Assembly (NCBI GenBank): GCA_963796285.1
Contig: CAWCKW010000013.1
Location: 512,001-576,000, forward strand
Direction: 5' to 3'
Origin: Nitrospirota bacterium
GTDB taxonomy: Bacteria; Nitrospirota; UBA9217
Length of the DNA: 64,000 bases
Numbering within the stretch: position 1 is the stretch's first letter; each line of letters begins with the position of its first letter. The notes under the pieces are model-generated. The model was not told where the DNA came from and ran no database searches. It saw nothing but the letters and a program-made list of their open reading frames with translations. This document shows, in pieces, positions 33,783 to 42,739 of this stretch. The translations under genes were made by a program, and so were the position numbers.

Positions 33783-34840
33783 ATGCAAGAACCAATACTC
33801 TATCAGGGAAAGAAGATTCAGCGGCATGCAGGACTAGTTCACGAAAAACCGAGAACGTACGTCGAGACACTTGATGCCAAGATCGAGACGTATATATCAA
33901 AGCTCAGGGACTTTGAAGCACGGTGTTCGATGCCGGACGCGGACAAGGAAGCGCTCCTGAATGAGATAACCATGCTGAACGACTCGATGCTTCATGCATG
34001 TGCACAATTTGAACAGGACGTGAATGATCCACTGGCCCTTAAACAAGCGCAGGTCTATTTCCGCGAAAAGACACATCCAATCCTGTCGAAAAGCTATTTC
34101 ATCAACCGTGCTAGAATTTGGCCGCAGGGGCATCAGGGTGATTATCATGACTTTGGAACTGGCATACAAGAATTCGCCGATGTCGGAAGGCATAGGATAT
34201 TATCTGGATAAATACCTTCTTTCCACGACAATTGGCGACGGTGTAAAAGAGCGGATCAGTAAAAATGCGTGACTTGTTGAAAGAGGAACTTGATCAGCAG
34301 AAGCAATCCGAAAGTCCTCGATGTGGCCTGCGGCTCCTGCCGGGAAGTTTTCGAACTGGCGCCGGAGATCAAGGCATCGGGAGCCAAATTCACCTGTGTT
34401 GATCTGGACCCTTCTGCCCTGGAGTTCGCCCTTGATCGTTTTGCCTATGCCGGGCTTACGGAAGAGCATACGGAATTGATCCAGTACAATGCACTCAGAA
34501 TGTTTGATGTTGAGACGGCTCAGACGGAATTCGGGATGCAGGACATCATTTACAGCATTGGATTTTTTGATTATCTCCCCGATGATTTCCTGTCGAAACT
34601 GCTGAACTCCCTATATCTGCTGCTCAATCCCGGCGGAAAACTTATTGCGTCCTTTAAGGATGCCGAATCGTTACCGGCCGCAGAGTTTTTCATTGGCTAG
34701 TTGATTGGGACGGGTTCCTGCAGCGCACCGAGAAAGATTTCTTGAAGAGTGTTCCAGGACGCCAACATCCCGAGCAGCGCACTATCAATGACCCGGGTCG
34801 ATTCCGGATCGATCGTCTTCTATTCGATACGAAGCAGTAG
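33783..34840 (+). CDS. Class I SAM methyltransferase, PhcB-like (split by about 4 indels)
   Basis: ORFs 33783-34211, 34024-34272 and 34290-34700 join to ...RARIWPQGHQGDY-MTLELAY...YLDKYLL..., KVLDVACGSCRE, CVDLDPSAL, IYSIGFFDYL, LNPGGKL, WLVDW...R. Confidence 0.75.
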
Positions 34841-35047
34841 CACCAACAGAACAGCGACATACTGAACCTGCCGGTAAAGGAGCAATTGTCATAACGAGAT
34901 GCTTGTGGCATCAGCGATGATTAATGAGGGAGAGAGCCTTTTCCATGTGGCGGACTGGCTTGGGTATAGTGCCTGACCAAAACCGGGAGGATGAACTTTT
35001 GCTTGAAGCAGCTTTATAAAAGTGCTATATAAGTATATAACACTAAG

Positions 35048-35893
35048 TTGCATAAAATGCCTATTCAAGCAGGGGTTATCACGCATAGTGTCGCAGCAGC
35101 CGTACAAATCGACAACACGCGTTCAAATTGGGAGAAGAGTCTGAAAAATAGTCCTCTTCTTCATAAAGTGGCGATCGTAACAGGCGGTACAAGAGGCATC
35201 GGCCGAGCCATTGTCCTTGCCATCTGCGGGGCAGGTGCTGATTGCGCATTCACTTATTCCAGCAATCGCGATGCAGCGGAGTCACTTTCTGAAGAGGTGC
35301 AACGTCTCGGCAGAAGGGCGTTGCCCATTCAGCTTGACGTAAGGGATTTTGAAGGCGCTAAAACGCTCGTCGATACGGTAAAAACGGCATTCGGTCAGCT
35401 CGATATCCTTGTTAACAATGCCGGAATTACGAAAGACAAGTCTCTCATGATGATGAGTCAGGAGGATTGGTCCGATGTGATCGATACAAATCTCACGGGG
35501 GTCTTCAATACCACCCGGGCGTGCATTATTACCTTTCTCAAACAGAAAAGTGGAAACATCGTCAACATTTCTTCCGTTAGCGGCATCCACCCGCTCCCCG
35601 GTCAGGTTAATTATGCTGCTGCAAAGGCAGGGGTAATCGGCTTTACCAAGTCGCTGGCTAAAGAGGTAGCGCCCTATAACATCAGGGTCAATGCAATTGC
35701 CCCCGGCTTTATCAGCACCGAGATGACCGCTGAGCTTAGCGAGAAGTCTAGAGATAAATTTATGAACATGATCCCTCTCAAGAGATTCGGCACTGCCGAT
35801 GAAGTCGCGCAGGTTGCACTTTTTTTACTCAGTGACGAGTCGCAGTATATAACTGGGCAGACAATGCAAATCGACGGGGGATTAGGAATATAG
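35048..35893 (+). CDS. fabG: 3-oxoacyl-ACP reductase (SDR)
   Basis: TGGTRGIG, NNAGIT, YAAAK, NAIAPGFI. True start may be further downstream. Confidence 0.9.
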   Translation: MHKMPIQAGVITHSVAAAVQIDNTRSNWEKSLKNSPLLHKVAIVTGGTRGIGRAIVLAICGAGADCAFTYSSNRDAAESLSEEVQRLGRRALPIQLDVRDFEGAKTLVDTVKTAFGQLDILVNNAGITKDKSLMMMSQEDWSDVIDTNLTGVFNTTRACIITFLKQKSGNIVNISSVSGIHPLPGQVNYAAAKAGVIGFTKSLAKEVAPYNIRVNAIAPGFISTEMTAELSEKSRDKFMNMIPLKRFGTADEVAQVALFLLSDESQYITGQTMQIDGGLGI

Positions 35894-35905
35894 AGCGCCC
35901 CTATC

Positions 35906-40484: not shown

Positions 40485-40486
40485 TG

Positions 40487-40495
40487 TGGTATAAT
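40487..40495 (+). promoter_or_regulatory. Extended -10 element upstream of the sensor kinase
   Basis: TGGTATAAT about 75 bp before the kinase start. Confidence 0.4.
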
Positions 40496-40571
40496 CTTAT
40501 AGTTAGGAATGACGAAAAGCGTAAACTATAGTGCATTCTACTTTAAAGCAACTTTATTTTAACGCATATTA

Positions 40572-42739
40572 ATGGATAAGAAAAGATTATATCGAAAATG
40601 AAATGACCAAATTACTTCAATACTGGGGGTCGTTAGTATTTGGCCTGGGAGCAGTTGTTATTTTATTATTAGGCATATTAGATTATTTTGTTACCCCAGA
40701 AAATTTCTGAAAATTTATTAATTTATAGATTAGCGGCTGCTTCTTATAATTTTCGTTCTATATTTTATCAATAAACAAAAATTAAATAAACATTTTCAGA
40801 TAAGTATATTTGCACTATCTATTATCATAGTCGCTGGTATGGTTGAACTAATGATTCTTTCTTTCGGTGGTCATCAATCGACTTATTATGCGGGGATGAT
40901 AATTATTTTCATGTTTATTCTTGGATTTCTCCCCTTTTTATCCATTCACAATACCTTTATTATTCGCAACCTTTATCATATTTGATTTATTTAGTACCAA
41001 TCTTACTTTTGACAACATAACGAATATGCGAATATTTATTAATAATAATGTCTTTTTGCTCGCGGTAATTAGCATTGGTATTATATTGCGATATCTATAA
41101 TGGTCGATATTATAAGATAACTGCAAAAAAAATTGTCTCTCGAGTACGATCTTTCCAAGGATAAAGAACAGCTTGAAAGCTATTCCCACCAACTTAAAGA
41201 CATGGTCGAAGAGCGGACAAAGGAACTCACGAATCCGAGCAGTGGCACCGGTCCCTTTTTGAGAACGCGACGGACGGCATTATCGTCATGGACAAGAACA
41301 GCATTATCGTGAATGCGAATGACAAGGCCTGCGAAATGCATGGCTTTACACGAGAGTCGTTGATCGGCGCCCATATCAAGCTTTTGGTGGGCGACAATGA
41401 CACAATGTCAAGGAAAACGCGCCGGATCCTGGACGGTGAATCGCTTGTATTTGAGGCAAAGAACAATAGGAAGGACGGCACCTCCATATACGTAGAGATC
41501 AGCTCCAAGGCCATCACCATCGGCAATGAGGTCTTCATACAGTCGTTCTACCGTGATATTACTGAAAAGAAGAAGTTCCAGGAACATGTGTTGCAGTCTC
41601 AGAAGATGGAATCCGTCGGGGTCCTCGCCGGCGGGATAGCCCACGACTTCAATAATATTTTGACCGCCATCCTCGGCCATACTGATCTCATTCGCCGGTT
41701 TGCCGTGTTGAACGAAAAGGCGACACGCAGTCTGAACGTTATCGAGGATGCTTCACGACGGGCGGGGAGGATGATCTCAAAACTGCTGGGCTTTGCGCGG
41801 AAAAGCAAGCACGAACGTACGCCGATCAACCTGAACGACGTGGTGTATGAAACAATCAAACTGCTCGAACAGGTCTTCAAAAAGAGCATAGATCTGAGCG
41901 TGGAACTTGACAACCGGCTCCCCTTGATCCAGGGCGACGTTAATCAGATGGAGCAGGTCATCATGAACTTCCTCGTCAATGCCCGTGATGCCATGCCGAA
42001 TGGGGGACGCATCGTCATCAAGACTCAAGCCAGGACGGTCGTGAAGGGCATGCCGGATGTGCCGCCGTATGTCCCTCCCGGGGAATACGTCCAGATCAGC
42101 GTCTCGGACACCGGCACGGGGATCCCCGAAGATATTAAGAATAAGATCTTTGAGCCGTTCTTCACAACGAAGGAGCCTGGAAAAGGCACTGGGCTCGGCC
42201 TATCCATGGTCTACGGGGCCATCAATGACCATCAGGGATATCTCTCTGTTGAGAGCACTCTCGGCGTCGGAAGCGTGTTTACCGTATTCCTGCCGGCTGC
42301 GGCCCCTGCGACAGTTGCCGGAACAAAGGAAGCCGTAAGCCCGGGCAGTGGAAAACAAACCCTGCTGATCGTGGATGACGAACAGGATATTCTGGACATC
42401 ATGCGGGATTCGCTCGAGAATCAGGGGTACAAGGTGTTTGCAACCGGCGATTCCACGGTTGCCATAGACATCTACCGAAGGATTTTTCACGAAGTCGCGC
42501 TTGTTATTACCGATATCGTCATGCCCGGCATTGACGGCAGGGAGCTGATACGGCAGATCAAGGTGATCAATCCCGATGTTAAGGTTCTCGCGATTTCCGG
42601 TTATACGAAATATGTTGGGGAAAAAGAGGACATCAAGGATATAGACGGTTTTCTCCAGAAGCCGTTTGAATCATATTATCTGCTATCCGTGGTGAAGCGA
42701 ATACTCGAAGCGAAGACAAAAAAATTCATCCCCGTCTAA
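40572..42739 (+). CDS. Hybrid sensor histidine kinase: multi-TM input, PAS, HisKA, HATPase, REC (5' part broken by indels)
   Basis: 5' frames give hydrophobic segments ([41 protein letters not shown]) and [11 protein letters not shown] 41288-42739 has [27 protein letters not shown] and a receiver TDIVMP. Confidence 0.85.

Follow-up and report, generated by a model that had tools for sequence, protein, structure and literature searches.

The question raised by this locus is whether eight co-oriented genes of a Nitrospirota bacterium, at 33783-42739 on the + strand of the window (the whole stretch of DNA analysed here, 64,000 nucleotides long), encode a system that both makes and senses a lipid signal. 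Our preferred answer, to which we assign a probability of about one half, is that the eight genes function as one unit for making and sensing a lipid methyl ester. If so, it would be a cell-to-cell signalling system undescribed so far, in a Nitrospirota bacterium.

The gene content proposed in the original prediction, eight + strand genes, was recovered in full from the open reading frames with their translations and from Pfam searches of the window fragments, in which 11 of 17 fragments matched the expected families and the other six, all short, gave no match. Most of the genes had also been described as fragmented, which applied to six of the eight; FabG and the KS-like (CLF) gene are intact.

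The first gene (33783-34840) encodes a PhcB-like class I SAM-dependent methyltransferase (MT) of about 350 aa, read in three frames with seven single-base indels, of which the piece at 34281-34700 matched Methyltransf_12 (1.1e-11). The AT-rich region upstream of it (33300-33782, + strand; GC 0.31 in 33300-33599) is only 53-55% identical to that of three relatives (G006, G005 and G001) and contains several promoter-like hexamer pairs; a promoter scan gave 26 versus 18.6 +/- 4.2 expected, overall not above chance. The MT gene is followed by an intact FabG-type 3-oxoacyl-ACP reductase (35048-35893; adh_short_C2, 1.3e-70), the true start of which is probably between 35048 and 35168 and whose ortholog matched TIGR01830 with 314.9 bits. 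Next come an intact triad-less, CLF-like KS (35906-37147), a FabZ of the amxFabZ type (37152-37595), an active KS with Cys-His-His present (37588-38798; three frames, two frameshifts) and an acyl carrier protein (ACP, 38823-39041; PP-binding, 1.3e-12; two frameshifts near the start). A CrtI/phytoene-dehydrogenase-like FAD oxidoreductase (FADox) with 13 frameshifts occupies approximately 39067-40480. The last gene encodes the kinase, composed of a six-helix membrane sensor domain (HKn, 40573-41228; six frameshifts, GC 0.27-0.30) and an intact cytoplasmic part with PAS, HisKA, HATPase_c and REC domains (HKc, 41198-42739).

The cluster is flanked by genes for UppP/BacA, a PEBP and a DUF3108 protein. 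Neither a thioesterase or other chain-release enzyme nor an exporter gene was found in the window fragments, the eight ortholog proteins or the flanks, and within 33783-42739 there was no separate response regulator, receiver or HPt gene, the kinase having its own REC; these absences were counted against the signal reading. The share of the words of this stretch present in any one sequencing run did not exceed 17%.

The methyltransferase-kinase pair and the acyl-chain cassette

The pairing of MT with kinase recurred from locus to locus. Among 112 distinct MT loci, MT and kinase were adjacent in 25, the acyl-chain cassette lay between them in 41 and the sensor was 1.2 kb away in one; a further 23 loci ended too early to tell, and 22 had neither. 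A kinase sensor was thus located downstream of the MT on the same strand in 67 of the 112 loci, and the predicted co-occurrence of the MT with this type of kinase was also seen by genome, as the sensor domain was present in 73 of the 82 MT-positive genomes among 401 Nitrospirota (nine had the MT only, 27 the sensor only and 292 neither). The 27 genomes with a sensor domain and no MT were counted against a make-and-sense system. In the two-gene loci, the flanking genes were unrelated from locus to locus. The conserved core is the pair formed by the MT and the 6TM-PAS-kinase-receiver protein, with the cassette inserted between them, an arrangement absent from the original prediction. As the pair is kept in 25 loci that have no cassette, the role of the MT cannot depend on this cassette.

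The multi-TM PAS-HK-REC kinase of the original prediction was confirmed as a gene and in its domains, and its input could be refined to a defined domain, modelled as six helices with a pLDDT of 92.5. No other part of the locus is as divergent as this sensor. In comparison with the closest relative (G004), identity was 0.84-0.97 in 33.3-37.5 kb and again from 41.1 kb on, with the cytoplasmic part of the kinase 93-97% identical from about 41400 onward, and it fell to 0.49-0.62 in 39.3-41.1 kb, where the GC content is 0.27-0.37. This low-identity, low-GC segment corresponds to the FADox and the membrane sensor of the kinase. Over 24 loci, giving 276 pairs that depend on one another through the common history of related loci, the pairwise identities of FADox and HKn were correlated (Spearman 0.55, or 0.54 with CLF and MT controlled), compared with 0.17 for HKn and MT, 0.14 for HKn and CLF, and 0.84 for MT and HKc. 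FADox and sensor domain therefore constitute a hypervariable unit that co-varies across loci, which the original prediction had not anticipated. That both vary together among close relatives suggests, by analogy with pherotype loci, that the structure of the signal and the specificity of its receptor diversify together.

When the proteins of the cassette were compared with solved structures, the KS ortholog gave its top score with 9s5h_B (494.4 bits), ahead of the ishigamide KS 6kxd (346.9) and FabF (313.6). The triad-less KS gave 387.7 bits to 9s5h_C versus 247.5 to the best canonical FabF; alignment and translation placed a Phe at its Cys site and Asn and Glu at its two His sites, and 9s5h_C itself carries a Val at the Cys site. 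Judging from its chains, PDB 9s5h is presumably the heterodimer of the preprint 10.64898/2026.05.19.726425, the text of which does not carry the code. For FabZ, the top five PDB matches were all amxFabZ entries, and in the alignment an Ile stood opposite Ile69 and a Leu opposite Ile115 of amxFabZ, with the motif TAIILF also present in the window translation. Sequence comparison places KS, CLF and FabZ nearest, among proteins of solved structure, to those of the anammox 'ladderane cluster', a kinship that the original prediction did not foresee. In the passages of PMC10139942 drawn on here, the bulky Ile69 of amxFabZ (Gly in canonical FabZ) is described as narrowing the tunnel, position 115 is hydrophobic and substrates up to C8 are efficiently converted; the tunnel residue shared by the window FabZ points to short chains. 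The ACP gave 53.1, 51.6 and 51.0 bits to the amxACP entries 7qv0_D, 9s5i_E and 7auf, and a higher score, 56.1, to the unrelated ACP 2qnw. The FADox ortholog matched Amino_oxidase and NAD_binding_8 in Pfam and, best among PDB entries, CrtI 4dgk; its score for crtI_fam (151.4 bits) was under the cut-off of 238.1. A flavoenzyme match was missing in eight of the 41 complete cassette loci, which was likewise counted against the signal reading.

These relatives are discussed as enzymes of lipid biosynthesis, and the locus could accordingly be read as a pathway specialised for a cell-bound lipid or pigment (such as an unusual membrane lipid with ties to the anammox pathway, or a polyene), in which the MT would only tailor that product and the kinase would regulate the pathway by monitoring the state of the membrane or the level of the product, with no signal passing between cells. 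Highly reducing type II PKSs are composed in this way, of a KS/CLF pair plus KR and DH without an enoyl reductase, in keeping with 6kxd as the second-best KS match, and a cell-bound product would also agree with a cluster that has no release enzyme and no exporter. We nevertheless consider this alternative rather doubtful, as the MT-kinase pair is kept without the cassette, amid unrelated flanking genes, in the 25 loci mentioned above, the FabZ tunnel would favour short chains, and a housekeeping lipid would not be expected to show hypervariability in flavoenzyme and sensor domain only.

For the preferred reading, a lipid methyl ester that is made and sensed by the products of one locus, we infer chain length, methylation site, export and sensing as follows. 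The core is a predicted small-molecule SAM methyltransferase, of the family named after PhcB in automatic annotation, together with a hybrid histidine kinase with a predicted six-helix, membrane-embedded input; in this lineage FabG, the triad-less KS, the amxFabZ-type dehydratase, the active KS, the ACP and the CrtI-like flavoenzyme lie between both genes. ACP, FabG and FabZ would work with the KS/CLF pair to build a private acyl chain, probably short (about C6-C8), which the flavoenzyme would tailor by desaturation, isomerisation or saturation. The MT would then make a neutral methylated product, most simply a methyl ester, able to leave the cell, and binding of this product within the membrane by the six-helix domain of the kinase would switch the PAS-kinase-receiver relay.

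A wider and more tentative proposal is that wetland and sediment Nitrospirota possess private-channel quorum sensing, in which a ladderane-type short-chain line would feed a PhcB-like MT to give a volatile or diffusible methyl ester, and the flavoenzyme, setting unsaturation, and the six-helix sensor would be exchanged together between strains. If true, this would imply pherotypes for a lipid signal, and the anammox cluster would descend from, or share ancestry with, a signalling pathway.

Frameshifts within the cluster

A functional unit has to be reconciled with the state of its reading frames. Relative to the intact orthologs of G006, 30 frameshifts were counted in total, seven in MT, two in KS, two in ACP, 13 in FADox and six in the kinase, with none in FabG, CLF or FabZ; FabZ has one in-frame TAA (37401-37403), adjoining an A7 run, which could be a real nonsense mutation. 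Were the indels real, the cluster would be a decaying pseudogene, silent and eroding here and in the two genomes of the same genus, G004 and G005, in which it is broken too. Such a density of frameshifts plus a stop within 9 kb, with many flanking genes intact, is what decay would produce, and one insertion (34290) is common to the window genome and G004. Nearly every indel is private to one genome. Moreover, the private substitutions of the window branch are mostly synonymous (synonymous to non-synonymous, MT 21:8 alongside its seven frameshifts, FabG 18:3, CLF 29:10, FabZ 10:2, KS 37:6 and HK 30:8), the same pattern as in the intact lineages, so that purifying selection acts on the genes of the cluster, broken as they are.

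Other parts of the window are affected as well, since valS, an essential single-copy gene, is split across three frames, and a further indel-rich patch lies at 26.3-27.5 kb. In addition, the extra bases at 34146, 34258, 34289, 34666, 34685, 35037, 35088 and 37699 are missing from the environmental contigs of related populations. Because own-branch substitutions are mostly synonymous, valS is also split and the contigs of relatives do not carry these eight bases, the approximately 30 frameshifts are most likely assembly errors, and the cluster looks broken through local indels of the assembly. The low contig counts of G000, G004 and G005 (13, 20 and 7, respectively) were taken as a sign of long-read assembly. 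Intact orthologous clusters were found in G006, G001, G023, G020 and G018, which are among the seven genomes, out of 40 relatives, with a CLF ortholog. Decay is therefore an improbable explanation, and the advice of the original prediction to polish the assembly was apt, since the indels look like errors.

The methyltransferase family

The intact MT ortholog matched Methyltransf_12, _25 and _31 and PF12147 in Pfam, and no PhcB-named match in NCBIfam. The MT and its close orthologs, of about 350 aa, have no PilZ domain; other family members are 424-548 aa long with PilZ in front, an N-terminal PilZ being detected in 14 of 15 long representatives, one of which also has a receiver. In JGI, 10 of the 120 close MT homologs listed and 15 of the 120 listed in a second MT branch have as product name 'extracellular factor (EF) 3-hydroxypalmitic acid methyl ester biosynthesis protein', which we take to be KEGG's name for phcB. 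Among the 80 loci listed from a scan of genome contigs, Ralstonia was absent, and tblastn against plasmids with the MT gave matches in Rhizobium and a few other genera. Planctomycetota homologs adjoin REC-HD-GYP proteins, FadL/TodX channels and giant kinases. The signalling context of the family, given by PilZ fusions, neighbours and product names, was counted in favour of the make-and-sense system.

An AF2 model of the intact ortholog (pLDDT 93.8) predicted a class I SAM methyltransferase core that is capped by helices at its N-terminus; the best folds listed were small-molecule methyltransferases with such a cap (SgvM, 3ocj, Rv2258c, DtpM, SibL and PigF), and CheR was absent among the listed matches. 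It is very improbable that the MT methylates the kinase or its receiver in a CheR-like adaptation, with the cassette as an unrelated insertion: tight adjacency, co-inheritance and the MT-HKc identity correlation would fit that idea, as would PilZ fusions that speak for regulation rather than metabolism, but the helical substrate cap, the FadL/TodX channels for hydrophobic molecules beside the Planctomycetota homologs and the position of the cassette exactly between both genes, with tight spacing, in 41 loci argue against it.

Comparison with known systems

The nearest counterpart of the cassette is the anammox 'ladderane' cluster, which comprises amxACP, amxFabZ, amxFabF2, amxFabFmut, an enzyme resembling PDH plus a B12 radical SAM enzyme, and which passages of PMC10139942 and the abstract of the preprint describe as exclusive to ladderane producers. 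Both have an active and a triad-less KS, for which the anammox pair stood well ahead of the other PDB matches, a FabZ with the hallmarks at Ile69 and position 115, an ACP of their own and a phytoene-dehydrogenase-like flavoenzyme, likened by family rather than to the anammox PDH sequence. Unlike the anammox cluster, the present one has no B12 radical SAM gene (no radical SAM domain was found in window fragments or the eight ortholog proteins), and it additionally contains FabG, a methyltransferase of the PhcB-like kind and the sensor kinase, in a Nitrospirota host. The same passages treat the anammox cassette as thought to serve membrane-lipid synthesis, not signalling, a point that was set against the signal reading. 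With the highly reducing type II PKS of ishigamide, the cassette shares a KS/CLF heterodimer, ACP, KR and DH and the lack of an enoyl reductase; the match to 6kxd is much weaker than that to the 9s5h pair, and amide-forming and aryl-starter genes are absent here.

The sensor is predicted to be a bundle of six membrane helices joined by short loops. Its best Foldseek matches were the six-helix anchors of the membrane adenylyl cyclases AC8, AC9 and AC5 (TMq 0.63-0.67, with weak E-values of 0.05-0.8), sequence similarity being absent. The 6TM design of the Vibrio quorum-sensing receptor is called identical to that of these cyclases in the abstract of PMC4821796, and CqsS is likened here by description.

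In the Phc system of Ralstonia, with the operon order phcB-phcS-phcR-phcQ, the gene of a SAM methyltransferase likewise immediately precedes that of a membrane histidine kinase, according to the parts of PMC7694676 used here, and PhcB is 464-468 aa long (section 4.3 of that paper), compared with about 350 aa for the window MT, a difference that was set against the preferred reading. The locus also differs in its kinase, a 6TM-PAS hybrid that includes a receiver, in having neither PhcR- nor PhcQ-like genes, in the private KS/CLF-ACP-KR-DH-flavoenzyme cassette between MT and kinase, in the PilZ domain of many MT-family members and in its host phylum, Nitrospirota. The original interpretation is thus supported in part, namely for gene content and MT-kinase co-occurrence, and the putative kinship of the MT with PhcB draws on automatic names; the analogy, which would extend to lipid-derived chemistry and to the product name of MT relatives, draws on such names, gene order and length class.

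Staphylococcal agr and Bacillus comQXP are pherotype loci with peptide signals and proteins unrelated to those described here, so that the analogy is one of population genetics only. In both cases, as in the present locus, the hypervariable segment covers a signal-tailoring enzyme, putative here, and the membrane half of a kinase, the cytoplasmic half of which is conserved.

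Gene content and the methyltransferase–kinase pair

Eight co-oriented genes on the + strand occupy positions 33783-42739, as judged from ORF calls and from Pfam searches of the window fragments. Of 17 fragments searched, 11 matched the expected families and six short ones had no match, which confirmed the eight-gene unit claimed in the original prediction. The genes encode, in order, a class I SAM methyltransferase (MT, 33783-34840), an intact FabG (ending at 35893), an intact ketosynthase without the catalytic triad (CLF, 35906-37147), FabZ (37152-37595), an active ketosynthase (KS, 37588-38798), an ACP (ending at 39041), a CrtI-like flavoenzyme (approximately 39067-40480) and a kinase (approximately 40573-42739) whose PAS-HisKA-HATPase-REC portion is intact from 41198. 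The GC content of the cluster is 0.39-0.51, compared to 0.55-0.59 across most of the window. The host genome (G000) amounts to 3.58 Mb in 13 contigs, and the public-record names of its relatives are Nitrospirota and Thermodesulfovibrionales.

All junctions within the cluster are tight or overlapping, except for a gap of about 330 bases between MT and FabG (34840-35168). Similar gaps are found in close relatives, and identity to genomes G006, G005 and G001 drops there to 0.45-0.55. Rfam gave zero matches across 30000-46000, this gap included, and a promoter and terminator scan of the locus gave nothing above chance.

A CLF ortholog was detected in seven of the 40 relatives searched (69-93% identical). 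Complete eight-gene clusters were present in G006, used as the intact reference, and in G023, G020 and G018; that of G001 has no flavoenzyme. The synteny of MT, KS/CLF and kinase was followed in 112 distinct MT loci, the set left after de-duplication of 47 retrieved regions and 80 loci from a scan. The cassette (FabG to flavoenzyme) lay between MT and kinase in 41 loci, the kinase followed the MT directly in 25, and in one the sensor was 1.2 kb away. A further 23 loci carried the cassette and ended before a kinase could show. The remaining 22 had neither cassette nor kinase; the 14 of these whose sequence extends at least 3 kb downstream all held distant MT homologs, of ≤46% identity and chiefly from Planctomycetota and Bacteroidota. 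The genes flanking the two-gene loci varied from locus to locus.

Among 401 sampled Nitrospirota genomes, the MT was found in 82 and the sensor domain in 100 (both in 73, MT only in nine, sensor only in 27, neither in 292), related genomes being non-independent in these counts; G000 has a single copy of each. Therefore, co-retention across loci and genomes indicates that MT and kinase form an evolutionarily kept unit, into which, judging by gene order, the acyl-chain cassette is inserted. KS, CLF and ACP were present in all 41 complete cassette loci, the flavoenzyme in 33, FabZ in 32 and FabG in 31. Kinase-bearing cassette loci without a flavoenzyme match include L016 (from G001), L030, L042, L043, L077, L081 and L096, which means that some lineages can do without the tailoring enzyme.

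Two side arrangements were also seen. At L038/L109 (contig C19 of G019), two tandem MT genes, the first apparently split, precede one kinase. The sensors detected without an MT, as in G008, G003, G180 and G238, occur in up to four copies in one genome, some of them within proteins of 850-1240 aa, and may be 'orphan' receptors; the match in G003 sits at a contig start.

Methyltransferase family, kinase sensor and proposed mechanism

The intact MT ortholog (350 aa) matched generic methyltransferase families and PF12147 (26.5 bits) in Pfam, and reached no NCBIfam cut-off; in the control genomes, PF12147 was matched in E. coli only. The family comprises 3461 representatives (50% clustering) at E ≤ 0.001, and its conserved motifs include the W-P-x-G-x-x-G-D stretch that had been spotted in the sequence from the start. 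The JGI product name 'extracellular factor (EF) 3-hydroxypalmitic acid methyl ester biosynthesis protein', which we take to be KEGG's name for phcB, is carried by 10 of the 120 close homologs listed and by 15 of the 120 listed in another MT branch. On these automatic product names, the MT is a candidate relative of PhcB. PhcB itself is longer, at 464-468 aa according to section 4.3 of PMC7694676, than the 350 aa of the intact ortholog.

An N-terminal PilZ domain was found in 14 of 15 long representatives, one of which also has a receiver, and PilZ-bearing forms of 424-548 aa occur in the two-gene loci of Aquificota and Thermodesulfobacteriota; the window MT has no PilZ. At L036, a PAS-GGDEF diguanylate cyclase (7509-8702) directly follows a two-gene MT-kinase module, a further tie of the family to c-di-GMP. 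Distant MT homologs in Planctomycetota (L133, L137, L139, L115 and L123) adjoin FadL/TodX outer-membrane channels, REC-HD-GYP regulators and giant AAA16-TPR-GAF-kinase-receiver proteins, the six-helix kinase not being beside them.

Ralstonia was absent from the 80 loci examined among the 558 from relatives in a profile search of genome contigs with the MT, and also from a search with a GC-rich 463-aa family member, which led to Acidobacteria and Gemmatimonadota branches. A tblastn search of plasmid records gave Rhizobium in 88 of 93, plus a few other genera. The literature searched held nothing relevant on PF12147, PhcB with PilZ, PilZ-methyltransferase-histidine kinase with fatty acid methyl ester, phcB in Nitrospirota or K19620, and the PilZ passages of one paper concern pilus genes.

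Residues 1-215 of the kinase make up a domain of six helices and short loops, with conserved motifs (AF2 pLDDT 92.5); no Pfam family covers it. In fold searches this sensor came closest to membrane adenylyl cyclases, namely to their six-helix anchors (TMq 0.63-0.67, with weak E-values of 0.05-0.8); according to PMC4821796, the Vibrio quorum-sensing receptor is of identical 6TM design.

The window and its closest relative, G004, are 0.84-0.97 identical over 33.3-37.5 kb and again from 41.1 kb, whereas identity falls to 0.49-0.62, at a GC content of 0.27-0.37, in the segment at 39.3-41.1 kb, which holds the flavoenzyme and the sensor; three comparisons show the alignment picking up again at 41163, the sensor/PAS junction. 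Spearman correlations of identity over 276 pairs from 24 loci gave 0.55 for flavoenzyme and sensor (0.54 when controlling for CLF and MT), but just 0.14-0.17 for the sensor with MT, CLF or KS. Between sensor and kinase half of the same protein the correlation was 0.385, and between MT and kinase half 0.84. Individual pairs differ in either direction: L017 and L023 share 0.80 identity in the MT and 0.43 in the sensor, and L023 and L032 share 0.69 in the sensor and 0.59 in the MT. Joint change of a tailoring enzyme and of the ligand-facing half of a receptor within a conserved frame is the pattern of pherotype loci, and the segment offers a natural experiment on the joint change of a lipid signal and its receptor.

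We give a probability of about one half to the cluster being a putative make-and-sense system. The cassette would build a private, probably short acyl chain, the flavoenzyme would tailor it, the MT would turn the tailored chain into a neutral methylated product, and the six-helix domain of the kinase would sense this product. The original prediction of a lipid signal with its own synthase line and cognate kinase is supported in part and sharpened: the eight-gene content stands, and the conserved core is now the MT-kinase pair, with the cassette as its insert. Several points speak against make-and-sense, namely the lack of a release enzyme, exporter or downstream regulator within the cluster, the eight of 41 loci without a flavoenzyme match and the 27 genomes with 'orphan' sensors. 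A possible, though distinctly less probable, explanation is a pathway for a cell-bound lipid or pigment to which a regulator is linked. BioC-like priming, in which the MT would methylate malonyl-ACP, is less likely, as the MT-kinase pair also exists without any cassette. A protein-directed methyltransferase is highly improbable; the AF2 model of the MT (pLDDT 93.8) has its closest folds among helical-cap small-molecule methyltransferases (SgvM, 3ocj and Rv2258c).

No description of the putative make-and-sense system was found in the literature searched and, to our knowledge, almost nothing is known of cell-to-cell signalling in Nitrospirota and other uncultivated anaerobes. A synthase-receptor pair conserved in 73 of the 401 sampled genomes would offer a direct handle on signalling there.

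Interrupted reading frames

Compared to the intact G006 ortholog, the cluster contains 30 frameshifts (MT 7, KS 2, ACP 2, flavoenzyme 13 and kinase sensor 6). FabG, CLF and FabZ have none, and FabZ has one in-frame TAA adjoining an A7 run. The MT indels are single bases, mainly inserted A or T, and all except one are private to G000. Private substitutions of the window branch were mostly synonymous (synonymous:non-synonymous, MT 21:8, FabG 18:3, CLF 29:10, FabZ 10:2, KS 37:6 and HK 30:8), with similar ratios in intact lineages (e.g. 26:11 for the G006 MT). Such a bias despite seven indels per kb argues against long drift and for assembly error.

The essential gene valS (valyl-tRNA synthetase, 50276-53069, - strand) is also split, over three frames (52521-53069, 52078-52683 and 50276-52027); as this is the sole copy in the genome, it marks indel errors in the G000 assembly. 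Moreover, the extra bases at 34146, 34258, 34289, 34666, 34685, 35037, 35088 and 37699 are absent from short-read contigs of relatives, which come from four studies, are 88-99% alike and represent related populations rather than the same strain. The best sequencing run contained at most 17% of the words of the stretch, and 39.2-41.0 kb, almost uncovered in four runs, carries no evidential weight. Together, the synonymous bias, the split valS and the contigs of relatives argue that the breaks are assembly errors, and true decay of the cluster in this genome is very unlikely.

The same cluster is broken at other positions in the same-genus genomes G004 (20 contigs) and G005 (7 contigs), from which we infer a shared technical problem in DNA that is AT-rich and strain-variable. 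Elsewhere in the window, 26100-28500 has no ORF of at least 150 aa and is probably another indel-ridden gene; the alignment of a patch at 26.3-27.5 kb with G006 (80.5% identity, 1144 columns) contains 14 gap openings. As a test of error patchiness, a genome-wide comparison of long-ORF coverage and GC was discarded because it is confounded by GC. Patchy indel errors can conceal a whole operon from automatic annotation.

The acyl-chain cassette and the anammox 'ladderane' cluster

In sequence searches of the PDB, the window CLF scored 387.7 bits with 9s5h_C, 265.8 with 9s5h_B and 247.5 with the best canonical FabF, 9s5h_B and 9s5h_C being chains of a KS/triad-less KS pair. The KS ortholog scored 494.4 bits with 9s5h_B, 346.9 with the ishigamide KS and 313.6 with FabF. 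At the triad sites the window CLF has Phe, Asn and Glu; in 9s5h_C, Val replaces the Cys and Glu the second His, a pattern that fits the description of amxFabFmut in the preprint 10.64898/2026.05.19.726425. The 9s5h entry would be the heterodimer of that preprint, the text of which does not give the PDB code.

The five best FabZ matches (8AYD, 7QV0, 8AYB, 8AYI and 8AYC; 126-131.7 bits, the next at 109.6) are amxFabZ entries according to PMC10139942. In the alignment, position 69 of the Nitrospirota FabZ is Ile and position 115 is hydrophobic, as in amxFabZ, whose tunnel is made narrower by Ile69 and which efficiently converts substrates of up to C8 (PMC10139942). The PDB match of the ACP was ambiguous as to the amxACP type, the flavoenzyme is a CrtI-family member that scores below the family cut-off, and no radical SAM gene is present in the cluster. 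The FabG ortholog scored 265.6 bits with FlxB, compared to a cut-off of 340. An aryl-polyene/flexirubin-type cluster was rejected, since the locus lacks an aryl-starter ligase and the other genes of that type, and its match to the anammox proteins is far closer.

The 'ladderane' cluster is held to be exclusive to ladderane producers in PMC10139942 and in the preprint 10.64898/2026.05.19.726425. According to Rattray et al. (PMC2649909), the combination of FASII genes with SAM radical or methylase and phytoene-dehydrogenase-like genes in K. stuttgartiensis clusters is rare but not unique, and similar clusters occur in some Deltaproteobacteria. The KS, CLF and FabZ of the window are close relatives of those of the anammox cluster, and they stand in another phylum and in another genetic context. 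Such relatives of the 'ladderane' core outside ladderane producers bear on what that core actually makes.
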